64,000 nucleotides of DNA from Alphaproteobacteria bacterium. GTDB taxonomy: Bacteria > Pseudomonadota > Alphaproteobacteria > CAAGCB01 > CAG-977. The position numbers and the translations under genes are program-made. Positions 17,738-32,833 of this stretch are shown here, one piece after another. How positions within the stretch are numbered: position 1 is the first letter of the stretch; each line of letters opens with the position of its first letter. The notes beneath the pieces are model-generated. The model had not been told where the DNA came from and did no database searches. It worked only from the letters and a program-made list of their open reading frames with translations. The stretch covers positions 69,936 through 133,935 of the forward strand of contig JAFVAT010000028.1 in assembly GCA_017480385.1 (NCBI GenBank), in the 5' to 3' direction.

Positions 17738-18757
17738 ATGAAGATTAACAATCGGCGCTATACTGGAAGCAAATATAAGCTGATGCCTTGGATAAAAGAA
17801 ATTATCCTAAAAAAATGTCCTAAGCGCAGTATATTGTTTGATGTTTTTGGAGGAACAGGCGTCGTTACGGCAGAATTGCTTGACGTGTTCGATTCCGCCA
17901 TAATTAACGATTTTCTTTATTCAAATGAAGTAATTTATAATGCTTTTTTCGGCAAAGAAAAAATCAATGAAAAAAAATTATCAACTTTTGAAAAAAAATA
18001 TAATTCCATAGAAAGAGTGAAGTTAGAAGATAATTACATATCTGATAATTTTGGAGGAAAATTTTTTAAGTATAATGACTCAAAACTTATAGGATTTATC
18101 CGAGAAGATATTGAAAACGCATTAAACAAAAAAACGATAAACAAACGAGAGTTTAATGTCTTGCTTGCCTCTTTGTTATATTCTTTAGACCGATGCGCAA
18201 ACACCGTAGGTCATTACGATGCTTATATAAAAGGGAAAGAGATAAGAGCAGATTTTATTTTTGAACTGATAGAGCCTATTATAACGAACAAAGAAGTAAA
18301 AATATATCGGATGGATGCAAATATTCTGGCCAAGAGTGTGTCTGCGGACGTCGCTTTTGTAGACCCTCCTTATAACAGCAGACAATATTCCAGATTTTAT
18401 CACGTTCTTGAAACAATTACAAAATGGGATAAGCCCAAATTGACTGGAACAGCAATGAAACCTCCAGAAGAAAATATGTCCGAATATTGTAGAAATTCGG
18501 CTCCCGAAACTTTTGATGATTTGATTAAAAATCTAAATGTAAAGTATATAGTTGTAACCTATAACAATACCTACGATTCTAAAAGCTCATCATCAAGAAA
18601 TAAAATCACATTAGAACAAATCAAAGAAATCCTTAATAGAAAAGGTAGAACGGAGGTCTTTGAAAAAGAATATCACCGGTTTAACGCGGGAAAAACGGAC
18701 ACAACAGAACATAAGGAAATGGTATTTATAACAGAGGTTATGAATAAAAATGGATAA
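17738..18757 (+). CDS. D12-class (Dam-like) N6-adenine DNA methyltransferase, RM subunit 1
   Basis: Motif I-like YTGSKYKLMPWI...FGGTG and motif IV FVDPPY. 8-bp overlap with the next MTase. Confidence 0.8.
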   Translation: MKINNRRYTGSKYKLMPWIKEIILKKCPKRSILFDVFGGTGVVTAELLDVFDSAIINDFLYSNEVIYNAFFGKEKINEKKLSTFEKKYNSIERVKLEDNYISDNFGGKFFKYNDSKLIGFIREDIENALNKKTINKREFNVLLASLLYSLDRCANTVGHYDAYIKGKEIRADFIFELIEPIITNKEVKIYRMDANILAKSVSADVAFVDPPYNSRQYSRFYHVLETITKWDKPKLTGTAMKPPEENMSEYCRNSAPETFDDLIKNLNVKYIVVTYNNTYDSKSSSSRNKITLEQIKEILNRKGRTEVFEKEYHRFNAGKTDTTEHKEMVFITEVMNKNG

Positions 18758-19655
18758 AAGCATTGTAAGATCCCCGTTTTTTTATGTAGGAGACAAATAC
18801 AAATTGATGTCTCAACTAAGGAAACTTTTTCCTCAAGACATCAGTATCTACATTGAGCCGTTTGTTGGAGGCGGAAGCTCTTTCTTAAATACCACAGCAA
18901 AGAAATATATTGTAAATGACGTTGATCCGTATGTCATCAAACTTCATAAATATATTTCTTCGTTTGCAGGAAAAAAAGACGCCTTTTTACAAAATATTTA
19001 TAATACCATTGAAAAATACGGTTTATCTTGTTCGTATAAAAATACCGTTGTTCCCGATGAACTAAAAAAAGAATATGTAAAAACATATTATTCTCATTAC
19101 AATAAACTCGCTTATCAGAAGATGAAGAATGATTTTAATTCATCAAAAGACCCTTTGTTATTATACCTTTTGCTCATATACGGCTTCAATCATATGATCC
19201 GTTTTAACAGTTCAGGTTTATTTAATCTTCCTGTAGGCAATGTCGATTACAATAAAAATGTTTATAATGCGCTTTGCAATTACTTAGATTTTATGGATAA
19301 ACATGATGTTCAATTTTTCAATAAAGACTATAGAAGTTTTCTAAATGATATATCTTTTGATAAAAAAACCTTTCTATACTTTGATCCTCCATACCTGATA
19401 TCCGGTTCAGAGTATAATAAATACTGGAATAGCGAAGAAGAAAAAAAATTATGTGAACATCTCGATTTTCTTGATACGCAAGGAGTTCACTTTGGAATAA
19501 CGAATTTAATAAGCCACAAAGGAAAAACTAATACAACATTCCTTGAATGGTCCAAGAAATACATTTGTTATGAAATCAGCAGCAACTATATCAGCTTTAA
19601 TGACAATACCATTAAGGCGAACTCAAAGGAGGTTTACATAACAAACCATGGCTAA
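18750..19655 (+). CDS. D12-class (Dam-like) N6-adenine DNA methyltransferase, RM subunit 2
   Basis: YVGDKYKLM...PFVGGG and FDPPY motifs. Overlaps the downstream endonuclease gene by 8 bp. Confidence 0.75.
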   Translation: MDKSIVRSPFFYVGDKYKLMSQLRKLFPQDISIYIEPFVGGGSSFLNTTAKKYIVNDVDPYVIKLHKYISSFAGKKDAFLQNIYNTIEKYGLSCSYKNTVVPDELKKEYVKTYYSHYNKLAYQKMKNDFNSSKDPLLLYLLLIYGFNHMIRFNSSGLFNLPVGNVDYNKNVYNALCNYLDFMDKHDVQFFNKDYRSFLNDISFDKKTFLYFDPPYLISGSEYNKYWNSEEEKKLCEHLDFLDTQGVHFGITNLISHKGKTNTTFLEWSKKYICYEISSNYISFNDNTIKANSKEVYITNHG

Positions 19656-21219
19656 AAGTAAGGCAAAACCTTTGTCTTTTTCGACAACCATCAGAAATCC
19701 GGAACGGATTCCTAATTTTCTGAATTGTATTCTTCCCTTTGAAGGTAAGCTGCTAACATCGCAGGTTATTCATGAAGTTGTAAAAAGTGTGATTAGGGCG
19801 AAAGAATACACCCCGAATTATATCAAAAAACAACCTAAATTGAATAGCATTTTATTGAATGATGAAAAAACATATAGCGATAACGAATTAGAACAAATAA
19901 TAGAAAAATCTCCTCAAAAACATAAAGAAACCGGCTTTGAATATGGTTGGGATTCCAGATTTGATACGTGGTATAAAATGATAAAAGAGTTCGGCTTCAT
20001 TAAATATAGTATGAATAAGCCGATAGAAATTACACAAACCGGTCATATGCTTGTTGACGCGTATAATGAAGACCCTATCAATCAAAAGAAAATACAATTA
20101 GTTTATTTAAATGCTCTTATGAAGTATCAAACTAATAATCCGCTTAGAAAGAATCTAAATGAAAATGTTCCATTGCCTTTTCTATTGAATGTCATACAAT
20201 TTTTCCATAATGATCCAAACGAAAACAATGCCGGCATTGCGCGGCATGAACTTCCAATACTGATTTGTTGGAGAAATAATGATGCTTATGAAGCGTATAA
20301 ATATATAAAAAACATCAGAAAAGAAGTTCATTTTCAAGCGTCTGACGAATATATTTACGAAAAATGCTTAGAAATTCTTGAAAACGATAATAGAAAATAC
20401 TTAAAAAGTGAGAAAATATGCCACGAAGCCGTTGATGAATATATACGTAAGATGCGCATGTCCGGATTGCTTTCATTAAGAGGAAATGGAAGATTTTTGG
20501 ATATCAACAGCTTTGAAAAAGACTTGGCAGATTATGTAATGAATAATTACATAAATTATTCGAAGTTTTCATCAGAAAACGATTATATTGACTATATGGG
20601 AACAGTCGATAAAAAGATTATTCAAATCGAAGACAAAGAAGTAATTGACTTTTCAGATATAAGAAAGAAAACCTTATATAAATATGCTTCTGAAATGAGC
20701 AAAGAAGAAATTATTAAAGAGCTGCAGATCGTTTGCGATAAAAAAGAAAGCAAGAACCTAATACTTAGATTCATTAACGCGCCTACAAGGCTTGAATTTT
20801 TAACCAGCATTGCTTTAGTTCAAAATTATGACGGCTTAGATGTAAATCCAAACTATTCCGTAGATGATGAAGGGTTGCCAATATTTACTGCGTCAGGCGG
20901 ATTTGCTGACATCGAATGTTATGATTCCGATTATGATAGTTATTTTGAGGTAACTTTAATGTGTGGTCGCTCCGAGCAGGTAAACAATGAAATAATCCCT
21001 ATAAGCAGACACCTTAAAGAAGCAAAAATCTCTAGAAGAAATGAATCATTCTCCGTTTTTGTGGCTCCTGTAATTCACCCCGATACCAAAGAAGCCGCCG
21101 AATGGCAGAAAAAGAAATACGGTGTTGAAATAATCACGTTTAACATACATGAGTTTATATCTGCTCTAAATACTACAAAAAAAGCCTCTAATTTACGGAG
21201 CTTCCAAGAGATAAATTAG
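19648..21219 (+). CDS. putative Type II (possibly IIS) restriction endonuclease
   Basis: 523-aa ORF translationally coupled after two m6A MTases (two-MTase plus REase layout, as in DpnII/MboI-like or IIS systems). No catalytic motif confidently read. Confidence 0.5.
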   Translation: MAKSKAKPLSFSTTIRNPERIPNFLNCILPFEGKLLTSQVIHEVVKSVIRAKEYTPNYIKKQPKLNSILLNDEKTYSDNELEQIIEKSPQKHKETGFEYGWDSRFDTWYKMIKEFGFIKYSMNKPIEITQTGHMLVDAYNEDPINQKKIQLVYLNALMKYQTNNPLRKNLNENVPLPFLLNVIQFFHNDPNENNAGIARHELPILICWRNNDAYEAYKYIKNIRKEVHFQASDEYIYEKCLEILENDNRKYLKSEKICHEAVDEYIRKMRMSGLLSLRGNGRFLDINSFEKDLADYVMNNYINYSKFSSENDYIDYMGTVDKKIIQIEDKEVIDFSDIRKKTLYKYASEMSKEEIIKELQIVCDKKESKNLILRFINAPTRLEFLTSIALVQNYDGLDVNPNYSVDDEGLPIFTASGGFADIECYDSDYDSYFEVTLMCGRSEQVNNEIIPISRHLKEAKISRRNESFSVFVAPVIHPDTKEAAEWQKKKYGVEIITFNIHEFISALNTTKKASNLRSFQEIN

Positions 21220-21283
21220 TTTATGTCGCATCAACACACGATTATCCAAGCCGTTTCAAGAAAAAAGCCATCTGTTCCAACTC

Positions 21284-21339
21284 TATCAAAGCCTTCTTTA
21301 CAAAAACCGCTTTTCGTTATAAAACTGTCGGCAACAAAC
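21284..21339 (+). repeat. 56-bp direct repeat, copy A (flanks Abi gene)
   Basis: tatcaaagccttctttacaaaaaccgcttttcgttataaaactgtcggcaacaaac; 54/56 identical to copy B at 22534-22589. Confidence 0.85.
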
Positions 21340-21610
21340 ATCCATTTAAAAAAATCCGCAAAATGCAAAAAAATAAAATAGCGGTTGATTTTGCCGGAAG
21401 GGATTAGATAAATTCTATTTCGAAAATTAGACTGCCAAATCGGTTTATTCCCAATTGGGATTACCTAATAGAAACAATACAAAGATTTCTTAAATATCCA
21501 GGAAAAATGCCGTTGATTTTTTCATCAGAATCGGTTATATAATTCGTAACAACACTCGGGACGCCTCTTAACAATGCGCACCACTCCGAGTCTTTTTTTG
21601 GGAAAAATCT

Positions 21611-22504
21611 ATGAAAAACAATCCGTCCGGAATCCCTTTTGACAAGCCGCCTTTATCCAATAAAGAAATAATCCGCCTGCTTTCCGAACAGGGAATGATT
21701 ATCGACGATCCGAAGCGTGCCGAACATTATCTGGATTTCATCTCCTATTACCGCTTATCCGTTTATATGTTGCCGTTCCAAGACGAACGCCATTCTTTCA
21801 AAAAGCCCGCTTCATTCGAAAAGATTTTGCGGCTTTATTCGTTTGACCGCCGGTTGCGCCTTTTATCTATGGACGCTCTGGAACGGATCGAAGTCGCGTT
21901 CAGAACCGTGATCGTGAATTGCCTATCCGAAAAATGCGGCGCATTCTGGCTGAAAAATCCGGATTGTTTTCACGATAAGAATAAACGCAATACGCAAGCG
22001 TCCATGCTTGAAGAAATCCGGAAACAGATCGAACAGCAGAAAACCGCTCCGAGCCTGGAGCATTATTATCAAACGTATTCCGCCCCGGAAATCCCTCCAG
22101 CGTGGATTGTTTTTGAAATCCTGCCGTTCGGATGCGTTTCCCGAATTTACGAAAACCTGAAACGTCCCTACAGAAAAGCCGTGGCGGAAAAATTCGGCAT
22201 AGAGGAATCCATTTTGCAGTCCTGGTTTCACGCTCTGTCCGTTTTGCGTAATTCGTGCGCGCACCATTCCCGCATCTGGAACAGAAAATATCCTTTCAAA
22301 ATCAAAAAAGCGAACGCTTTTCCGGAACTGGACACGGCGGAACGGTTTTACAGTTTTGCTTTAATCATTAACATCCTGTTGAACAGAATTGTTCAAACGC
22401 CGACCTGGACGTTGCGACTGAAAGAAACAATCAACGAATTTTCGGATGTCGTCAATCCGGTTCAAATGGGCTACCCTGCCGATCAGGATAAAAACGACCG
22501 TTAA
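21611..22504 (+). CDS. Abi_2 (AbiD/AbiF-like) abortive-infection family protein
   Basis: N-terminal region AEHYLDFISYYRLSVYMLPFQ and overall ~300-aa size are characteristic of the Abi_2 family. Confidence 0.7.
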   Translation: MKNNPSGIPFDKPPLSNKEIIRLLSEQGMIIDDPKRAEHYLDFISYYRLSVYMLPFQDERHSFKKPASFEKILRLYSFDRRLRLLSMDALERIEVAFRTVIVNCLSEKCGAFWLKNPDCFHDKNKRNTQASMLEEIRKQIEQQKTAPSLEHYYQTYSAPEIPPAWIVFEILPFGCVSRIYENLKRPYRKAVAEKFGIEESILQSWFHALSVLRNSCAHHSRIWNRKYPFKIKKANAFPELDTAERFYSFALIINILLNRIVQTPTWTLRLKETINEFSDVVNPVQMGYPADQDKNDR

Positions 22505-22533
22505 CGGTGCGGGGAAAATATCGGCTTCAACCT

Positions 22534-22589
22534 TATCAATGCCTTCTTTACAAAAACCGCTTTTCATTATAAAACTGTCGGCAACAAAC
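22534..22589 (+). repeat. 56-bp direct repeat, copy B (immediately upstream of lysK)
   Basis: tatcaatgccttctttacaaaaaccgcttttcattataaaactgtcggcaacaaac. Confidence 0.85.
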
Positions 22590-22617
22590 CTTAACTTTTT
22601 ATCAGAGGTGAAACACT

Positions 22618-24201
22618 ATGGATTCCGCAATCGCAATGACCGCCAATGCCTGGCCGTTTGAAGAAGCCCGCGCTTTGTACAATGAAAAGCTGGGCGGCAA
22701 AGTTCCCGAAAAGGGCTACGTCCTGTTTGAAACGGGATACGGTCCGTCCGGTCTGCCGCATATCGGCACGTTCGGTGAAGTCGCCCGCACGACGATGGTG
22801 ATGAACGCTTTCAAAACGCTTTATCCCGACGTGCCCGTGCGTCTGTTCTGCGTGTCCGACGATATGGACGGTCTGCGCAAAGTCCCCGATAATATTCCCA
22901 ACAAAGAAATGGTAGGGCAATACCTCGGCAAACCTTTAACAAAGATCCCCGATCCGTTCGGCTGCCATGACAGCTTCGGGCATCACAACAACGATTGTCT
23001 GAAAGCTTTTCTGGACAAGTTCGGTTTCACCTACGAATTCAAGTCGGCGACCGAGCTTTATACGACAGGCGTCTATGACAAAGCCCTGCTGAAAGTGTTG
23101 GAAAATTATGAAAAGATCATCAACGTCATTCTGCCGACTTTGGGCGAGGAACGCCGCTCGACCTATTCCCCTTTCCTGCCGGTGTCGCCGAAGACAGGCA
23201 ACGTCCTGCAAGTCGCAATGACGAAAATCGACAAGGAAAACGGTACCCTTTCCTTTATCGACGAAGACGGCACAGAAACGACCGTCCCCGTTACAGGCGG
23301 CCATTGCAAATTACAATGGAAAGCCGACTGGGCGATGCGATGGTACGCTTTAGGCGTCGACTATGAAATGTCGGGCAAAGACCTGATGGAATCCGTCAAG
23401 CTGTCAAGCAAGATCTGCCGCATTCTGGGCGGAGTGCCGCCGAAAAACCTGACGTACGAGCTGTTTTTGGACGAGAAAGGCGAAAAAATCTCCAAGTCCA
23501 AAGGAAATGGCTTGTCAATGGAAGAATGGCTGAAGTACGCTCCGGCGGAATCGCTGTCTTTGTTTATGTATCAGAAGCCAAAGACGGCAAAGCGGCTGTA
23601 CTTCGACGTGATTCCCCGCGCGACCGACGAATATCTGAACTTTATCAGCGCTTACGGTCGTCAGGAGGACAAGGACAAAATCAACAATCCCGTCTGGCAC
23701 ATTCATAATGGCAACCCGCCGAAGCCGGAAACGGGCTTGTCGTTCGGCATTCTGCTAAACCTCGTCAGCGTCTGCCATTCCGAAGACCCCGCCGCAATCT
23801 GGAAATATATCACCAGCTACGCGCCGGAAGCTTCGCCTGAAAAATGCCCGAACCTGTCACGGCTTGTCCCCTATGCGATCGCTTATTACAACGACTTTGT
23901 GAAGCCGACGCAGAAGTACCGCCTGCCGACCGAAGGGGAAACAACCGCTTTGAACGATTTGAAAGCGGCTCTGGAACAGCTGGACGCGCACACATCGGCG
24001 GAAGACACGCAAACGCTGGTCTATGAAATCGGCAAGAAATACTACGCCGACGATTTGAAAGCGTGGTTCAAAGTGATGTATGAAACGCTGTTGGGGCAAT
24101 CGACCGGCCCCCGTATGGGGTCCTTCATCGCGCTGTACGGCATCAAGGAAACCATCGCTTTGATTGCCGACGCCGTTGACGGCAAACTGGCAAACGGATA
24201 A
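22618..24201 (+). CDS. lysK: lysine--tRNA ligase, class I type
   Basis: Class I architecture: HIGH-like GLPHIGT near the N-terminus and KMSKS-like KISKSKGNG. Unlike class II LysRS. SD AGAGGTG. Confidence 0.88.
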   Translation: MDSAIAMTANAWPFEEARALYNEKLGGKVPEKGYVLFETGYGPSGLPHIGTFGEVARTTMVMNAFKTLYPDVPVRLFCVSDDMDGLRKVPDNIPNKEMVGQYLGKPLTKIPDPFGCHDSFGHHNNDCLKAFLDKFGFTYEFKSATELYTTGVYDKALLKVLENYEKIINVILPTLGEERRSTYSPFLPVSPKTGNVLQVAMTKIDKENGTLSFIDEDGTETTVPVTGGHCKLQWKADWAMRWYALGVDYEMSGKDLMESVKLSSKICRILGGVPPKNLTYELFLDEKGEKISKSKGNGLSMEEWLKYAPAESLSLFMYQKPKTAKRLYFDVIPRATDEYLNFISAYGRQEDKDKINNPVWHIHNGNPPKPETGLSFGILLNLVSVCHSEDPAAIWKYITSYAPEASPEKCPNLSRLVPYAIAYYNDFVKPTQKYRLPTEGETTALNDLKAALEQLDAHTSAEDTQTLVYEIGKKYYADDLKAWFKVMYETLLGQSTGPRMGSFIALYGIKETIALIADAVDGKLANG

Positions 24202-24219
24202 TTAACTCAAATAAAAAAA

Positions 24220-24247
24220 GGACTCTTTTTCAAAGAGTTCTTTTTTA
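24220..24247 (+). terminator. rho-independent terminator after lysK
   Basis: ggactcttt ttc aaagagttc hairpin followed by a T-run. Confidence 0.5.
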
Positions 24248-24337
24248 TTCAGATGCATTTTTATGCATAAACACCCCCTTGTTTTTGACAAAAAACCGAT
24301 CTATAATAGACAAAATTTTGTTTTATGGAGCGCCATT

Positions 24338-25072
24338 ATGCCTGCAAAAAAAGATGAAAACTATAAAATAACGTTATATCTTGACACGCCTAAAGCAATG
24401 ATGCGTCCTTTTAAGGATTTTGAAAAACACAACCATTTAGTCAGTTTAATCTTGGATCAGTCTTTAGATCCGGTAGCTTTTACGGGACATGCTTTTATCG
24501 GTTTGACCGATGCAAATGGCAAAGAAGAACGCTGGGGTTACACATGCGAAGAAGCCGCTTTGTTCAGAGCTTTGCGCGGCATGCCAGGTAAAATGGTACA
24601 GGAGGAATATGACACTCCTTATAACGAAGCGATTGTTTGGAACATCTCCAAAAGTCAGTATTTCGCGGCGAAAAGAGCTGTTGCCAAGCAATTAAAACAC
24701 CCCGGTACGTATAAACTTTTTGATAAAAACTGTGCCACGGTAGCCGCCGGCGTTTTAAAAGCGGCCAAAGTTCCGGACAGACCGGAAGGCAAACTGGCCC
24801 TGACCCCGCATGGCATGGTGATCAAAAAACGTATGATGTTGGCAAAACGCCGTTTGGAAACGGCTAAGTTCAAAATCAGAAATTTGTTCAATGGCTTGAC
24901 CGGCAAGGAAAAAGTGCCGAATTCGGAATTGCTGGACTCTTTAAAATCCAAACCGCTTCCCGTTCCTTTGGACAATGGCATGAAAGCTTTTAAACAGGGC
25001 TTCAGAAAAAAAGAGCTGCAGCCATTAGACCTGAACAAAGTCATCGCTTCAATTTCTCATATTCGGTCTTAG
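24338..25072 (+). CDS. hypothetical protein (possible His...Cys hydrolase fold)
   Basis: Likely start MPAKKDEN (GGAGCG 6 bp upstream). Conserved-looking FTGHAFIGL and FDKNCATVA blocks. Function unknown. Confidence 0.4.
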   Translation: MPAKKDENYKITLYLDTPKAMMRPFKDFEKHNHLVSLILDQSLDPVAFTGHAFIGLTDANGKEERWGYTCEEAALFRALRGMPGKMVQEEYDTPYNEAIVWNISKSQYFAAKRAVAKQLKHPGTYKLFDKNCATVAAGVLKAAKVPDRPEGKLALTPHGMVIKKRMMLAKRRLETAKFKIRNLFNGLTGKEKVPNSELLDSLKSKPLPVPLDNGMKAFKQGFRKKELQPLDLNKVIASISHIRS

Positions 25073-25614
25073 ACTTGCTTTTTTTCGTTTTTATCAGGGG
25101 ACTTTCTCTTATTTGAGAAAGTCTTCTTTTTCTTTGACAGGAAATATCCTCAAAAAAATGAATCGGCTGCAAATGCCGACTAAAGATTATCAATACTGCA
25201 GAAAAAACGATAAAAACAGCAAAAATACATACCGAACTCGGCTGAAAGTAAATGCTTTATCAAATTCATCAACTCTGAAATCTATCCGTCCCGATCCCGC
25301 TGTCTGCCGAAAACAGCAAAGATATAGACAGATCGTTATATGCTGTTCTTTTTTTTCAGGACATCTGACGAACATCCCGATTCGTCGTTTGGCACAGCAA
25401 AGAATTAAGTAAATCTCTGTAATGCGAAAAACCCGCCGAGCGGACGGATTGTTTTTGCACGAAAAGCATACTTTTTCAATATTTGATAATCAGTTAAAAA
25501 CAATTTTACAATTAAACGTTTCATATAAAAAATTTAAGACCGTTTAAAAAGATATAAATTAAAGTAATTAATTTTTTAAATAGGGCATTTTGTTACAGTT
25601 TTATTAAAAATATA

Positions 25615-25628
25615 CCCCCCCCCCCCCC
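25615..25628 (+). repeat. homopolymeric C14 tract, 73 bp upstream of the Cys-rich protein start codon (candidate slipped-strand phase-variation switch)
   Basis: tataCCCCCCCCCCCCCCat read directly. Lies in the AT-rich putative promoter region. Confidence 0.9.
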
Positions 25629-25701
25629 ATATTGTTCTTTAAAAAGGCGGTTTTTAGGCGTTTTATTGATCCATCACTTTATTTTCGAGGGGGATTTCAT
25701 T

Positions 25702-26772
25702 ATGAAAACTTTTTTTGTCTTCTTACTGCTCTCTTGTTCCTTGGCATTCAATGCACAAGCAGAGCAATTCTTATCCAATGACTCTTTCCAATTAGCAAAA
25801 GCCTTTAAATTAGGCCGAGATACTGATTTAGGAGGAGGTTTTTCCGCTTCCAGACTGACGGTAAAGTCTAAAAATTCATATCAAACTTCAAGCTCGTCTT
25901 CAGCGCGTCAAACCTGTGATTCAAACTGCAAACAATGTGACGCAAGAATCGGACAATGCCACCTCTGCAAAACGGGATTTTTCCTGAATAACAACAGATG
26001 CATCGCTTGTCCGGAAAACTCCTCTTGCTCCGGCAGAAAATTTACATGTGACGCTGGATTTTTCAAACAAAATCTATCTTGTCTTTCCTGTAATACACTC
26101 AGTGTGGAAAACGGATTTTGCGATGATTGCAACGATAAAGGAGAATGCACTCTCTCCGGTTGCTATGCCGGATACTATAAAGCGGACAAAAGCTGCCTCT
26201 CCTGTTCCTCCATTAAAGTGGAAAACGGTACCTGTAAAAACTGTGATAATGAAGGAATTTGTACGGATTTTTCCTGTGACTATCAATCCACTTTCAACGG
26301 CACTTCCTGTGTCAAAGATGTTATTTGGAGTCCGTGTAATCCTTATAACAACGAATGGGGCGGAATAAACGGAAGATACGGTTGGACAAACTCCACTGGG
26401 GCGCACTCTTGGAATTATGACGGCGAACATACAATTCCCTCAGATGCCTGGTGTTGGGACGGATACGGCATGACTGCAACAATCAATGTTCCTGACGGCG
26501 CTAATTATCCCGCCATAGCTATTCGCTTCTGGAGCAGAGTAACTGTCAATGGCTCATTTTCAACGAAGTATTTAAACATTGATATGTCAAGCCATAACAC
26601 TGGCGGCACAAAAATTATTACTTTCAACGATCCTGTCACTGCTGAAAAAATCATTTTCGCTTCCAAGCTAGGAACTTTAGTGTTTAATGGCGGACTGAAC
26701 GGAAATCCCTCTTGTGCGGTAAAGGACGGATGGTGCCATTGCACTGCAACAAAATGCGTTATTGACGGATAA
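25702..26772 (+). CDS. secreted cysteine-rich repeat protein (furin-like/ephrin-receptor-like CxxCxxG[FY] repeats) with C-terminal beta-rich domain
   Basis: Signal peptide MKTFFVFLLLSCSLAFNAQA. At least five tandem modules of the form C-x2-C-x2-G-F/Y-F/Y-x4-7-C-x2-C (for example CHLCKTGFFLNNNRCIACPENSSC). SD GAGGGGG. Confidence 0.7.
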   Translation: MKTFFVFLLLSCSLAFNAQAEQFLSNDSFQLAKAFKLGRDTDLGGGFSASRLTVKSKNSYQTSSSSSARQTCDSNCKQCDARIGQCHLCKTGFFLNNNRCIACPENSSCSGRKFTCDAGFFKQNLSCLSCNTLSVENGFCDDCNDKGECTLSGCYAGYYKADKSCLSCSSIKVENGTCKNCDNEGICTDFSCDYQSTFNGTSCVKDVIWSPCNPYNNEWGGINGRYGWTNSTGAHSWNYDGEHTIPSDAWCWDGYGMTATINVPDGANYPAIAIRFWSRVTVNGSFSTKYLNIDMSSHNTGGTKIITFNDPVTAEKIIFASKLGTLVFNGGLNGNPSCAVKDGWCHCTATKCVIDG

Positions 26773-26804: not shown

Positions 26805-26845
26805 AAACCGGTAGAGATTGAATCCCTCTGCCGGTTTCTTTTTTT
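26805..26845 (+). terminator. rho-independent terminator
   Basis: aaaccggtagag...ctctgccggttt hairpin plus T8. Confidence 0.5.
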
Positions 26846-27968: not shown

Positions 27969-30911
27969 TTATAAATCCAACTCGCCCGTGACGCTTTGTT
28001 TCTTTAACGAAACATAAGTCAGGATTTCTTTGATTGTCGCGCCGTTTCTTTTCCAACCGTAGAAAGTCGTTTCGTCCAGCAAGGCATACTTCCATTCGGC
28101 GTTCATTCTGTCTTCTTCGGACAGAGCGTTGATTTTTTCCACCCAATCCAAAGCCCCCAACTGTTTTTTCTTCACGTTCGCGTCATTGGCGGCATCTTTG
28201 TCGGACTTTGTTTCGACCACAAAGATTTCATTTCCGCATTTGACGAGAAAATCGGGATAATAGGACGACAGCATACCGTCCGTTCTCAAATAGCGCAGAT
28301 GGGCGAAAGTATGCTTGTTTTCGTTGATTTTGACAAAGCGTTCCACGCCCGTGTCCGCATCGCAGGCAATCATAAAGTCCTTTTCAAGCCCACCTCTGTT
28401 GGACGGATATGCCGTTTTTTCATAGATCGTCTTCACCAAATCAAGCGCGAAGTTTTCACGCATGGAAAGTTTATCGACCTGAGAAAACCATTCTTTCAAA
28501 ACGACGGCTTCTGTGACATCGACCTTGTTTTGCATTTCATAGACGGCTTTGCTAAACTCGCGCATAATATGTTCGACGATGTTCGCCTTCGATATCATCA
28601 ACACACGCCAGTTATTGCTCTGCATCGGATCGAACGGACAGTCGAACAGCCGCGTGCGGATGTATTTGTCGATCGTTCTGACAAGAACGGCGTGATTCAT
28701 CGCCATCAACGGCAGAGGCTTTCCCCGCCCGTCCGCGCCGAAGCGGTTGATATTGCCGCAAATAACGGTCAGCAGTTTTTGCAGAAAGTCGTTGTATGTT
28801 TGCGCGGTGAACAGGTCGGCTTTGACCTTGTATTCGCCGTAATTCGTCTGCACCATCATATCTTTGGAATAGAACGTTTCCGCTCCTGCCGCCGCCATCA
28901 TCTTTTGCAGTTGCTCCAACCGGTGGGTCTGCAAAGGACGCAAAGAGGAAACGGGGATTTCGACGTCCGCCATGATTTCTTCCTTTTCGTGCAGGATAAC
29001 GGGCCAGAACAAATCGTAACCGGCAAAGTTTTCTTTCAGTCCGACCGTTATCAAATCGCCGAGGACACTTTCCCTGTTCGCGCGATCGGAAGTGTCTTCG
29101 ATGACGATATCCTTGTCCAAATCTTCATAGAACCGCTCGAAAGCGGGGTGTTCGACAATGCTTAAAATGTCCAGATAGTTGGCGGGCGCGGTTTTCTTTT
29201 CATACAGATTGACCAGATTTTCGCGCTTGATGTCTTCGTATTCCCTGCCCCGCCACATCAGCCGCAAGCCGCGTCCGATGACCTGTTCCAACAGAATCGG
29301 AGCCTCGCTGGAACGCAAAGGAACGATCACGCACACGTTCGACACGTCGAAGCCTTCGCGCAACATCAACACGGAAACGATGACTTTCGGCTTGGCGTGC
29401 TTGTCCAGATTGAACAGCCGCCGCTTGACGGTTTCCCATTCGGCGGGAGCGATCTGCCCTTTCTTATTGGAATCGATCGTCATAACGTCGTCGTCTTCAA
29501 GCCCCTCGGTTTTCAGAAAATCCTCGACAAACGGCGTAACGGAAGTGTCTTCGCAGATCACGAGCATTTTCGGGTGCTTGGAGGAATCAAAGTCGGTGAA
29601 ATGCTTTTCCAAAATCCGCAGTTTGGACAACCCCGCGCGCAACATCAGCCTTTGCCCCTCGGACAAAGCGACGACTTTTTTGCCGTCGCGCACCGCCTTA
29701 AAGTCGATTTCCGAATTTTCCAGACTGGCGATTTCCTTACGTTTATCCAAAGCGATCGCCTTGACCAAGGCGCTTTTGACGGCTGTTTTCAGGGCGAAAT
29801 CGACAATGACGTGCGGAAAGTAATGCTTTGTCCGCCGCTGTCCGCTCCCCGTCACGTCGTAAGGAGTGGCGGAAAAGTCGATTTGAACAAAGTTCCGTCC
29901 CTTGCCTTCGGAGATTTTGTTCATCGCCTCCTGCCATTCGACATCGGACACGATGCCGTCCGTCTTGTTTTCGTGGATGTGATGCGCTTCGTCGTTGAAC
30001 ACGCAAATATCGGGCAGAGAAACCAGATATTCCAATTCCCCGCCGTTCAGAATACGCCTGTCGATCGCGTTCAGATCGTGTCCCGCCGTCGTCCCCGGCG
30101 TGATCGGCAACAAATCCTTAATGATGCTGCGCCCGTCTTCCAAAGCGGCGGAAGCGGTAACGGAAGCGTCTTCTTTGTCGTCTTCGTCGCCGCTTAACAA
30201 GTGCCAGTTCGTCACGGCGATAATGCCCTCTCCCGTGACTTTGCGCCCGATGTCGCGCTTTTCGCACACGGCGTTTTGCAAAAAGGAAAAGACCGCCTCC
30301 CGATACCGTTCGGGCAGGAACAAGTCAACGTTTTGCACGATGTCGGCGGTGTAAAAATCGCGCGTCCCGTCGGGGGAAAGTTTCCCTTTGAACGCATCCA
30401 GCAAGCGGTCATAGACGATCAGCCCCGGCGCGACCACCAGAAAGTTTTTCGTGTATTTCTGTTCCGTTGTCTCTCCGTATTTTGCGTTCAGGTATTGCCA
30501 GATCAATAAAGCGTTCAGCACCCACGTTTTCCCCGTTCCCGTCGCCATTTTGACGCAGTATTTCGGAAAGGCGTATTTGTCCTTTTGCAAAGTCGGCAGG
30601 AAATCGGCATCCAAAACGTCTTCGCCCGTCATTTGACCGACGGCGGCATATAAATCGAACACGTCCGCCGCTTTTAAGACTTCGTGACAATAAACGGCAT
30701 TTAAGATCGCCTGCTTCTGCCCGATGTGAAAGTTGCGGGAACGTTCCTGACAAAACACGTCCTCAAACCAATAGCGCAACAAGTCCGCCGTGACGGGCGT
30801 CACCTGACGCAACAGGGATTTATCCTCCCACGCCCGATTGACGACATAGGTCAAAGCGGCGACAAATTTTAAAGGAATGTCGCGCGTTCCCGTATTCAAC
30901 AAATTCGCCAT
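27969..30911 (-). CDS. res: Type III restriction enzyme Res subunit (SF2 helicase-nuclease)
   Basis: Walker A MATGTGKT and DEAH-like box VFNDEAHH. Start MANLLNTG is 3 bp after the mod stop, with GGAGGT SD. Confidence 0.82.
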   Translation of the reverse strand: MANLLNTGTRDIPLKFVAALTYVVNRAWEDKSLLRQVTPVTADLLRYWFEDVFCQERSRNFHIGQKQAILNAVYCHEVLKAADVFDLYAAVGQMTGEDVLDADFLPTLQKDKYAFPKYCVKMATGTGKTWVLNALLIWQYLNAKYGETTEQKYTKNFLVVAPGLIVYDRLLDAFKGKLSPDGTRDFYTADIVQNVDLFLPERYREAVFSFLQNAVCEKRDIGRKVTGEGIIAVTNWHLLSGDEDDKEDASVTASAALEDGRSIIKDLLPITPGTTAGHDLNAIDRRILNGGELEYLVSLPDICVFNDEAHHIHENKTDGIVSDVEWQEAMNKISEGKGRNFVQIDFSATPYDVTGSGQRRTKHYFPHVIVDFALKTAVKSALVKAIALDKRKEIASLENSEIDFKAVRDGKKVVALSEGQRLMLRAGLSKLRILEKHFTDFDSSKHPKMLVICEDTSVTPFVEDFLKTEGLEDDDVMTIDSNKKGQIAPAEWETVKRRLFNLDKHAKPKVIVSVLMLREGFDVSNVCVIVPLRSSEAPILLEQVIGRGLRLMWRGREYEDIKRENLVNLYEKKTAPANYLDILSIVEHPAFERFYEDLDKDIVIEDTSDRANRESVLGDLITVGLKENFAGYDLFWPVILHEKEEIMADVEIPVSSLRPLQTHRLEQLQKMMAAAGAETFYSKDMMVQTNYGEYKVKADLFTAQTYNDFLQKLLTVICGNINRFGADGRGKPLPLMAMNHAVLVRTIDKYIRTRLFDCPFDPMQSNNWRVLMISKANIVEHIMREFSKAVYEMQNKVDVTEAVVLKEWFSQVDKLSMRENFALDLVKTIYEKTAYPSNRGGLEKDFMIACDADTGVERFVKINENKHTFAHLRYLRTDGMLSSYYPDFLVKCGNEIFVVETKSDKDAANDANVKKKQLGALDWVEKINALSEEDRMNAEWKYALLDETTFYGWKRNGATIKEILTYVSLKKQSVTGELDL

Positions 30912-30913
30912 TG

Positions 30914-32833
30914 TTAAACCTCCTCGACACAAACGCTTTCCAAACCGAACACATCAACCGCTTTGACGCAGATTTTGCGATGTTCTTTTTTCGGAACGAT
31001 CAGCTTTGCCGAACGCGAAACGCGGTAATCGTCCGAATCGTTGTCTTTGTTTTCGCGGTAATCCTGCCACTTGGACACAAACGTTTCCCCGTCATAGTCG
31101 GGATCGACCGACCAGTATTCGATCAGGTCGAGCGGATTTTCCAAAATGACCTTTTGGATTTTTTCCTTGTTTTTATCGTCCAAAGACAGCATATCGGGCG
31201 ACAACAAAACGTAATTGTCCAGACAAACCGTGATTTCCTGTTCTTCGGGTCTGGCGGCTTGTTTAACGACGGGCGGCTTGATCGTCAGGTATTGCAGGGA
31301 CGAAAAACGGATTTTCGTTTCGGACACATTGAACTTTTTGGATTGAAGCCTGTCCATCAGATCGGGCGGAATGACCAGAACCTCCAATTCGGAACGGTCG
31401 ATTTCACGCAGCATTTTGCCGATGTCGAAAGAAAACTGCCACCCCAGAACGATGACTTTGCGCCACCCGCCCATAAAACTCTGCCGCAGGGCAAGCGCCT
31501 TTTTCAAAGTCGCCGCGGACGTGATTTTGTTCGGACTGTCCGCATAAACAAGCGTGTGAGCCTCTTTCATCTGCCCCAAATTCGCGGGCGCGGCATCATC
31601 GGTGAACGGAATCGCGCCGAACAGGTTTAACACGACCCGCGCCAAATCGCCGATGCGCTTAAATTCCTTGTTAGACGCGAACACTTCGCGCTGATAATCG
31701 CCGATCGCCTGATACAAAAACGGACGGGCTTCGTTATCGACCAACCGCTTGCGCATAATCATACACGCAGGCTTGCCCAAATCGGACGTGATCCACCGCC
31801 GCCCCAACTTTTCCGCAACGGCGGCAGTCGTTCCCGACCCGCCGAAAAAGTCCGCGACAATCGAATTTTCATTGGAAGAAGCCTTGATGATACGCTCTAA
31901 AAGAGCCTCCGGTTTTTGAGTAGTATAACCCAATCCCTCCAATGACGAATTATTGATTTTATCTAAATCCCATACATCATCAACAACCACACCTTCTTTC
32001 AAAGCATCATCAAGGTATCGTTTCATTCGCTTTCCATTACCTGCATCGGATAAAACATATTTTTTCCCTGTTTCAGGTTCTATTTCTATTTTTTGCTTTC
32101 TTTTCTTCGCATATTCTTCTGCAGATTTCCATTTTTCAAAAAATGAATTGAATTTAAGACCGTTTTTATCAAACGAGTAAAACAAAATAATATCGTGTCT
32201 TTTTTCAAAAGAATTTTTTAGTTTTTTATTCCAACCAGAATAATGCCAAATTATTTCATTTCTAAAATTTTCTTTTCCAAAAATATCATCAAGAATCAGC
32301 TTCATATAATGCCCGACGTGCCAATCTAAATGAACGTAAATAGTTCCATTGTCGGATAACATTTCCTTCATTAAAGCCAGACGGGGATACATATAAGCCA
32401 AATAACTGATTGTTCCCTTTTTCCACATATCGGAATAGCCAATTTGTTCCAGCACAGTCGGACGCTGTTCCACATTTTCATTCGGCAAAGTAATGTTTGT
32501 TCTGTAATCGGCTTTTGAATCATACGGCGGATCAATGTAAATCAAATCGACTTGACCGCGCATCGGGGGCAAGCCCGTGTACTTGTCGCCGCACAACAAC
32601 GCCTGCATCGCCAATAAATTGTCGCCGTAAATCAGACGGTTTTTCCAATCCCCTCCCTGTCTTTCCACCGATAAACCATAAGAAAATCCGCTTCTGTCCT
32701 TGGCGGGTAAAACGTATTCGTTCGTCTGCAAAGTGATTTTGTTCTGACTTTCAATGCGTTCCAAACAACGCTGAACTTCTTTCTTCCCCTCCGCCACAAT
32801 TTCCGGCAGACACTCTATCAGGCTTTTCGGCAT
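30914..32833 (-). CDS. mod: Type III RM Mod subunit (N6-adenine DNA methyltransferase)
   Basis: DPPY motif ([10 protein letters not shown]) and AdoMet motif [12 protein letters not shown]. 639 aa. Confidence 0.85.

Follow-up and report, generated by a model that had tools for sequence, protein, structure and literature searches.

In Neisseria (opc, porA and fetA) and in Treponema pallidum (tpr), G/C homopolymers lie in the promoters of surface-protein genes that undergo slipped-strand switching, and the tracts are found in the spacer between the -35 and -10 elements or at the start site. To our knowledge, G/C homopolymers of 14 nt have proved inherently hypermutable wherever they were studied (PMC1891110). 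Nearly all known cases of SSR-driven phase variation come from cultured pathogens. The Bordetella genes fim2, fim3, fimX and fimN each have a C-stretch of C7 to C22 in their promoters (Willems et al., 1990, summarised in PMC1891110). As far as that summary describes it, this stretch lies between the activator site, termed the fim box, and the -10, and replaces the -35 (PMC1891110). The bhuR tract, in contrast, is found 5 nt upstream of the bhuR -35 (PMC1891110). Finally, in Helicobacter pylori a T-tract next to the -35 of sabA works as a rheostat, as it shifts how the core promoter is aligned with an UP-like element (Aberg et al., 2014, PMC4081817). Here we describe a C14 tract that is probably a known kind of slipped-strand expression switch, in a new lineage and in front of an uncharacterised gene family.

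The tract was found in the window, by which we mean the whole 64-kb stretch of DNA that was analysed, from an alphaproteobacterial MAG:

25615..25628, + strand: uninterrupted C14 homopolymer, the proposed slipped-strand tract (sequence read, run count and a second assembly, L144).

It is flanked by TATA on the 5' side and by ATATT on the 3' side (sequence read), and the distance between the tract and the ATG at 25702 is 73 nt. Reading the sequence and counting the runs thus bear out the preliminary description, which had placed a C14 run 73 bp 5' of an ATG. The window has a G+C content of 43.8% and contains 33 G/C runs of 5 nt, three of 6 nt and one of 14 nt, with no run in the range of 7-13 nt. 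Since all the remaining G/C runs are at most 6 nt long, C14 is far beyond chance. It is also uninterrupted and has the hypermutable length of contingency promoters (roughly at least 8 G/C). Moreover, an independent MEGAHIT contig (L144), which matches window positions 18618-25755 at 100% identity, has C14 as well, and because of this reproduction the tract is not an assembly artefact.

Long C runs with similar surroundings recur at other loci. A paralogue of the same architecture in the same MAG (P0012, IJ752_07605; loci L003 and L004) is preceded by TATA-C14-ATATT, again with 73 nt to the ATG, and apart from the tract no DNA similarity between the window gene and the P0012 gene was detected. 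In a different alphaproteobacterial MAG of about 50% G+C (L050), TATA-C16-ATATT is found 74 nt before a gene for a secreted cysteine-rich protein of 257 aa, which is directly followed by a canonical member of the KLGR family defined below. A Logan contig (L137) has ATATG-C15-ATGTT 91 nt before an equivalent two-gene operon, and in a Rickettsiales MAG (L028) a lipoprotein-like gene is preceded, at a distance of 75 nt, by TATA-C11-ATATT. Two of these three further loci sit before genes of the same cysteine-rich family, and the genes at all three encode signal peptides. In the whole fetched sequences of L003, L050 and L137 the tract is the sole G/C run of at least 7. The five loci are not independent of each other: the window gene is a paralogue of the one at L003, and the pattern used to find L050 and L028 fixes the TATA and CATATT flanks. 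Uninterrupted tracts of 11, 14, 14, 15 and 16 nt have been kept in place at these loci while their flanks diverged, which suggests selection on the tract itself and is what one usually sees for contingency tracts under selection. Four of the eight family loci examined (L001, L006, L130 and L145) have no tract, and it is therefore a feature of some lineages, not of the whole family. A flank-specific pattern scan of JGI metagenomes gave one chance match, in coding DNA of 30% GC. As a separate observation, there are 35 loci in other gut bacteria, mostly Firmicutes, at which a G-tract adjoins TATAAT inside a TTGACA...TATAAT promoter.

The region around the tract in the window contains the following features:

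25591..25599, + strand: conserved upstream element TGTTACAGT (TGnTACAnT), which recurs in L050 and L003; candidate extended -10-like box or regulator site.
25600..25614, + strand: A/T-rich stretch TTTATTAAAAATATA, whose end adjoins the tract and reads TATA in the window, L003, L050 and L028 and TATG in L137; candidate UP-like element.
25629..25637, + strand: conserved junction ATATTGTTC, which links the tract to the -35-like hexamer (gap-free alignment of the five loci).
25638..25643, + strand: -35-like hexamer TTTAAA, with 4/6 matches to TTGACA (offset scan of the five loci).
25661..25666, + strand: -10-like hexamer TTTTAT, with 4/6 matches and without the A at position 2, after a 17-nt spacer (offset scan of the five loci).
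25687..25694, + strand: Shine-Dalgarno sequence GAGGGGGA, 7 nt before the ATG (sequence read).

The two hexamers come from a gap-free scan of the five loci, in which the matches to TTGACA and TATAAT were summed for each offset in the range 1-69 downstream of the tract. TTGACA scores highest at offset 10 (20/30) and TATAAT at offset 33 (22/30), which corresponds to a spacer of exactly 17 nt. In this register L028 reads TTGACA-N17-TAGATT and thus has a perfect -35, whereas at the other tract loci just 3-4 of the six -35 positions match. The promoter assignment rests on the conservation of the register and not on strength. The junction between the tract and the -35-like hexamer follows the consensus ATATT[GT]T[TA][CG] in four of the five loci and reads ATGTTTTCA in L137. 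Transcription is predicted to start near 25673. The tract would then lie at about -45 to -58, probably just 5' of the -35 and probably not inside the -35/-10 spacer. A promoter downstream of the tract explains why the distance between tract and ATG is conserved at 73-75 nt, since the promoter takes up about 45 nt and the 5' UTR about 29 nt. L130, a homologous operon that has no tract, has a leader of the same length. A generic promoter scan made no call at the downstream site; it called TTGATA-N18-TACAAT at 25483-25512, about 100 nt 5' of the tract. In the five loci, the hexamers that resemble a -35 (at +10) and a -10 (at +33) would place the repeat next to a promoter, whose geometry could then change with repeat length; two alternative promoter readings remain and are weighed below.

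On the other side of the tract, the TGnTACAnT element is found 12-13 nt 5' of TATA-Cn in L050 (TGTTACACT) and in L003 (ATTACACT) as well. In the tract-less operon L130 the same element is the -10 of TCGACA-N17-TACAAT. For the window copy, TGTTACAGT, the candidate roles are an extended -10-like box and a site for a regulator. The flanks of C14 moreover form a short imperfect inverted repeat, AAAAATAT / ATATTGTT, in which 7/8 positions pair (sequence read).

The gene behind the tract, and its 3' flank, are laid out as follows:

25702..26772, + strand: coding sequence of an exported cysteine-rich repeat protein of 356 aa (open reading frame; equals the NCBI entry).
25702..25761, + strand: signal peptide, aa 1-20, with cleavage after AQA (sequence read; relatives start with MKK, a hydrophobic core and AxA).
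25786..25818, + strand: N-terminal family-defining motif FQLAKAFKLGR, aa 29-39; the region around it is disordered in the model (conservation in 41 sequences; pLDDT).
25915..26337, + strand: cysteine-rich repeat array, aa 72-212, with 23 Cys and seven CxxC, furin-like, TNFR-like or VSP-like (AF2, Foldseek and the Pfam matches of relatives).
26395..26769, + strand: C-terminal all-beta domain, aa 232-356, beta-solenoid-looking and without a Pfam model (pLDDT; 13 strands).
26805..26845, + strand: terminator-like intrinsic hairpin AAACCGGTAGAG...CTCTGCCGGTTT followed by CTTTTTTT, its arms 11/12 complementary (sequence read).

An Rfam match to wcaG that overlaps the hairpin at 26805..26845 was below threshold and was disregarded.

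The protein is identical to the NCBI entry 'MAG: hypothetical protein IJ752_06905 [Alphaproteobacteria bacterium]'. Its N-terminus, MKTFFVFLLLSCSLAFNAQA followed by EQF after the cleavage point, reads as a Sec-type signal peptide with an AxA site, in line with the signal peptide that had been claimed for it, and its C-terminus (...CTATKCVIDG) has no hydrophobic segment. Judged from its sequence, the protein is exported past the inner membrane. It contains 29 Cys, 23 of them within residues 70-215. The preliminary description had proposed at least five CxxCxxG[FY] modules; the strict motif occurs only once (CHLCKTGF), and what stands is the description as a cysteine-rich repeat protein, with CxxC found seven times and CxxG[FY][FY] three times.

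AlphaFold2 was run with an alignment of 41 sequences. Residues 70-213 and 232-356 are modelled with a pLDDT of about 90, and for aa 16-66 the pLDDT is below 50. The structure prediction of the repeat modules, which had been proposed as a check, shows the array as a beta-hairpin ladder at a pLDDT of about 90, and the C-terminal domain has 13 strands in the model. This all-beta domain is present in one to four copies in some family members; some relatives repeat it three to four times, and it is repeated in P0002 and P0003. A Foldseek search of the PDB with the window protein gave no significant match. The weak matches of the cysteine-rich part were to DcR3/TNFR, R-spondin Fu1-Fu2 and the EGF domains of Pfs25, and those of the C-terminal part to left-handed beta-helix proteins. 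Searching the sequences in the PDB with a profile likewise gave no match. The window protein has no match in Pfam at E up to 1 and none in NCBIfam, whereas among 41 family members Pfam finds VSP in 11, TNFR_ELAPOR1_6th in seven, Ephrin_rec_like in five and Furin-like_2 in three. The likeness to furin, ephrin-receptor and VSP repeats that had been put forward therefore applies to the family, but does not extend to a membership of the window protein itself, which no Pfam model covers.

A full HMMER search recovered 133 relatives at E up to 1e-3, and a word-indexed search recovered one. The family built from them is characterised by a signal peptide, the motif F-x-L-A-K-A-x-K-L-G-R and a variable number of cysteine-rich modules, with the C-terminal beta domain in some members. 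In the 41 sequences K36, L37 and G38 are invariant, and A32, A34 and R39 are conserved to at least 90%. With its Sec signal peptide, KLGR motif and cysteine-rich array, the window protein belongs to this 'KLGR' family. Protein-based locus searches of genome contigs and metagenome contigs found no relatives, look-ups for exact copies of the protein, in its 356-aa and 368-aa versions, and of the product of the upstream ORF (269 aa) returned nothing on record, and literature searches found no description of a KLGR cysteine-rich bacterial family. The upstream neighbour ORF of 269 aa is called as 244 aa elsewhere.

With moderate confidence, we favour the explanation that C14 is a promoter-proximal contingency tract of the gene for this exported disulfide-rich repeat protein, with the core promoter just downstream. 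Slipped-strand mispairing at replication would add C residues to the tract or remove them from it. With each change in length, the weak core promoter would come to lie at another distance from, and in another rotational phase to, the upstream A/T-rich stretch plus TGTTACAnT element, which may act as an UP-like element or an activator site. The recruitment of RNA polymerase would be modulated in this way, and transcription would be raised, lowered or shut off, heritably yet reversibly. The sequences show the tract, its kept position and flanks at five loci where its length differs, the register of the promoter, and a product that is exported and rich in cysteine. We infer that tract length varies within populations, that it affects expression by ON/OFF switching, and where the protein ends up, including any exposure at the surface.

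We then compared the assemblies for differences in tract length. None was seen at the same locus: the window locus has C14 in two assemblies, and the paralogue locus has C14 in both assemblies, which represent two strains that are 6 SNPs apart. Assemblies report only the modal length of a tract. The switchable promoter tract that had been proposed at the outset is supported by a real, promoter-proximal tract and by the recurrence of a long C run at the paralogue and in other MAGs, but not by a length difference at the same locus among assemblies. The ends of several contigs coincide with tracts. L144 ends exactly one k-mer (141 nt) past the first C of the tract, which is consistent with a branch of the assembly graph at this point. 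Moreover, a Logan contig of the paralogue begins inside the paralogue's tract, and L137 begins 13 nt 5' of its own. Contig ends anchored at tracts are suggestive of length variation, but technical slippage or a loss of coverage at C14 could cause the same breaks. In the 5' third of the window gene (window 25756-26108) three independent assemblies fail to join. A metagenome study of the ruminant gastrointestinal tract is indicated by the sample names (XIEF21, SAMN158299xx) of the contigs that match.

Two other sources of variation were considered and rejected. Gene conversion between paralogues, as a cause of the assembly breaks, would have to act on genes that share no DNA similarity and have no internal DNA repeat. 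An invertible segment was suggested by an inverted repeat (18/21) that brackets promoter and gene; the paralogue has only 12/15 at a non-homologous position, there is no adjacent recombinase gene, and the repeat is probably due to chance.

The same switch might also work in another geometry, in which CATATT, consisting of the last C and ATATT, serves as the -10 while the spacer or the -35 region is occupied by the tract, as in Neisseria opc and porA or in the C-stretch of Bordetella fim. The promoter would then read TTAAAA-N18-CATATT at C14 and would have the optimal 17 nt at C13. That ATATT adjoins the tract in four of the five loci fits this arrangement, as do the TTAAAA at matching distance that the window shares with L137 and the 35 loci of other gut bacteria, mostly Firmicutes, in which a G-tract abuts TATAAT. 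However, a hand alignment shows no usable -35 at 17-19 nt in L003 and L050. The match to TATAAT close to the tract is found at offset 2, one base off the register of the hexamer, and its sum of 19/30 is below the 22/30 reached at offset 33. L028, finally, has its perfect canonical promoter downstream of the tract. We consider this geometry improbable.

The tract could also be a fixed cis element whose length is held by selection, either as a rigid C/G spacer or as the place where a regulator that recognises poly(C)/poly(G) binds. In favour of this, both paralogues have C14, as do the two strains sampled at the paralogue locus and the two assemblies that cover the window locus, and the flanks form the imperfect inverted repeat AAAAATAT / ATATTGTT (7/8). 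Yet the lengths of 11, 15 and 16 at the other loci show that the tract varies between species. In addition, G/C homopolymers of 14 nt are hypermutable, and the constancy among assemblies concerns modal lengths only. The probability of a fixed element is, in our view, low.

We give little credence to a third reading, according to which the tract is transcribed. The upstream TGnTACAnT would in that case be a real extended -10, and the C run would be located at about +12 to +30 of the 5' UTR, with a role at the RNA level or no length-dependent role at all. TGTTACAGT and TGTTACACT are indeed good extended -10 boxes, and in the tract-less L130 the box is clearly the -10 (TCGACA-N17-TACAAT). This reading is weakened by the leaders themselves, since the four of them share no RNA structure (fold z-scores of +1.5 to -1.2) and Rfam gave no family above its threshold. 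Pairing of the C run with the Shine-Dalgarno sequence occurs, among the four leaders, in the window only, and L003 has neither the TG nor a -35. Furthermore, the L130 promoter is found about 35 nt before the ATG, which is the position of the downstream promoter in the tract-bearing loci.

A leftward promoter on the minus strand, comparable to the loci of other phyla that have TTGACA...ATATG-Gn-TATAAT on the G strand, is very improbable. This motif class is common in other phyla, and the reverse complement of the upstream flank gives TATATT, 5/6 to the -10 consensus, in the window and L050. Nevertheless, no minus-strand -35 above 3/6 exists at 17-19 nt, no minus-strand gene lies downstream in any of the five loci, and in all five a signal-peptide gene lies 73-91 nt to the right. 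A sequencing or assembly artefact, for instance two-colour poly-G noise or a chimeric join, is barely conceivable: the source is a MAG and other assemblies break near or inside the gene, but the tract is interior to long contigs, was obtained with two assemblers at two loci, and recurs in unrelated studies and species with its flanks and spacing conserved.

If the favoured reading, a contingency tract just upstream of the core promoter, is true, the strategy of SSR switching is used by an alphaproteobacterium of the ruminant gut that is uncultured and probably commensal, and the switch governs secreted cysteine-rich proteins whose family is uncharacterised and is similar to a gut protozoan's antigenically variable coat. 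G-tract promoters before exported proteins in many gut Firmicutes moreover suggest that such switches are under-annotated in gut metagenomes. A more far-reaching possibility, which we put forward tentatively and regard as unlikely, is that uncultured gut Alphaproteobacteria have a bacterial counterpart of the Giardia VSP coat, in which the members of a multigene family are exported, disulfide-rich and resistant to proteases, and every gene has a promoter-proximal poly-C switch to itself, so that single cells would display different combinations of them. On this view, there may be further population-level diversity in the 5' third of the gene, where the three assemblies fail to join.

The comparison with Giardia can be made at the level of the proteins. 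Like the VSPs and the furin-like and ephrin-receptor-like repeats (PF03302, PF07699 and PF15913), the KLGR proteins are exported, have CxxC-rich arrays and form a multigene family in a gut organism. Unlike a VSP, the window protein has no C-terminal transmembrane anchor and no CRGKA tail, and it has a bacterial Sec signal peptide, the N-terminal KLGR motif specific to its family and a C-terminal beta domain that is absent from VSPs. The likeness to VSP, furin-like and ephrin-receptor-like repeats may thus be convergent.

At the level of the promoter, the parallel with opc and tpr drawn in the preliminary description is not supported for the geometry. In contrast to opc, porA, fetA and tpr, a tract within the spacer is the less supported arrangement for C14; the best-supported core promoter is downstream of the tract, and the layout is nearer to those of sabA and bhuR. 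With the fim genes of Bordetella the locus shares a poly-C of similar length, a separate tract for each paralogous gene of an exported protein, and the position of the tract between an upstream element and the core promoter. It differs from them in that the best-supported -35 and -10 are both downstream of the tract; a fim-box equivalent or a BvgA-like regulator was not identified, and the locus is not assigned to the Bordetella fim type. The closest counterpart is sabA of H. pylori. There the tract is T and not C; our locus comes from an uncultured alphaproteobacterium and concerns a gene family without relation to sabA, and its switching is inferred from sequence. In both cases, however, a homopolymer is found just 5' of the -35 of a weak sigma70-type promoter, with A/T-rich UP-like DNA beyond it and an exported or adhesin-type product, and tract length is proposed to alter the axial alignment of this upstream DNA with the core promoter. 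In silico, the window shows the sabA-type layout: its tract ends 9 nt before the -35-like hexamer, and TTTATTAAAAATATA and TGTTACAGT are upstream. If the favoured reading is correct, the rheostat geometry of sabA would extend to G/C tracts and to another phylum.

We compared two assemblies of the paralogue locus (P0012, IJ752_07605; L003 and L004), which carries its own C14 tract 73 nt from the ATG. Over an 11.8-kb stretch the two differ by six mismatches, all of which lie within ~330 nt just upstream of the paralogue C14 tract (60-390 nt upstream of it), with zero mismatches elsewhere. The cluster represents local diversity of the promoter region. The features of the window discussed here are the following:

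17738-22504 and 27969-32833, defence genes on both sides of the locus
25579-25599 and 26743-26763, left and right arms of an inverted repeat
25615-25628, + strand, C14 tract
25702-26772, + strand, cysteine-rich CDS
25756-26108 (also 26109-26195), segment of the gene's 5' third at which assemblies break
25786-25818, + strand, conserved motif, aa 29-39

The arms of the inverted repeat, the left of which contains TGTTACAGT, match at 18/21 positions and enclose the promoter, the tract and the entire CDS. No recombinase gene was found near the repeat, and the paralogue has a weak inverted repeat of 12/15 only, at a different position. The arrangement around the window promoter and CDS is probably due to chance. 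Upstream of the tract-less family member P0015 (L145), an (AT)6 dinucleotide run is found ~110 nt before the start codon (L145 ~900-920).

Three independent assemblies leave the 5' third of the window gene unjoined: one contig stops at 25755, while others begin at 26109 or 26195, and the flanking contigs are 99.98-100% identical to the window as far as the break. A search for a DNA repeat shared with the paralogue or internal to the gene, which might account for the breaks, found none. It is possible that this segment is polymorphic in the population.

On one side the defence genes encode two Dam-like methyltransferases together with an AlwI-type endonuclease and an Abi_2 protein; on the other they form a type III res/mod pair. 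The gene for a class I lysyl-tRNA synthetase also lies between the two blocks. In one sample (L140) a single substitution splits res into 613 and 361 aa.

Two short peptide motifs are highly conserved. FxLAKAxKLGR lies near the N-terminus, shortly after the signal peptide, in the family, and CPxGLSKSADGCCCVK forms the C-terminal tail of 'gene A', the cysteine-rich gene ahead of family members in two-gene operons (L050, L130, L137); one variant of this tail, in L130, finishes with CPSPLKLSSDGCCCVK. Both could be sorting or processing signals.

A further C tract of variable length, in a multicopy setting, is found on the Alphaproteobacteria MAG chromosome OZ254962.1. Three copies of a repeated element (L015, L022, L030) have near-identical flanks and read TATA-C13, -C14 and -C16, followed by AGCATATT.

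Finally, genome contigs were scanned for TATA-C8+...CATATT, a pattern modelled on the C14 tract flanks; loci L011-L128 are among the matches listed. Read on the opposite strand, at least 35 loci (e.g., L042, L068, L102 and L126) have the sequence TTGACA-(A)AAATATG(C)-G8-13-TATAAT, a canonical promoter whose spacer, of 15-23 nt and mostly 18-20 nt, is occupied by the G-tract. Their hosts are chiefly gut Firmicutes/Bacilli/Erysipelotrichaceae/Lachnospiraceae, but they also include some Treponema and Streptobacillus and a single Rickettsiales MAG. The product of the first ORF downstream usually has a signal peptide or a lipoprotein signal at its N-terminus, and several genomes have multiple copies among the matches listed. 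These G-tract promoters may constitute a class of phase-variable promoters that is widespread and under-annotated.
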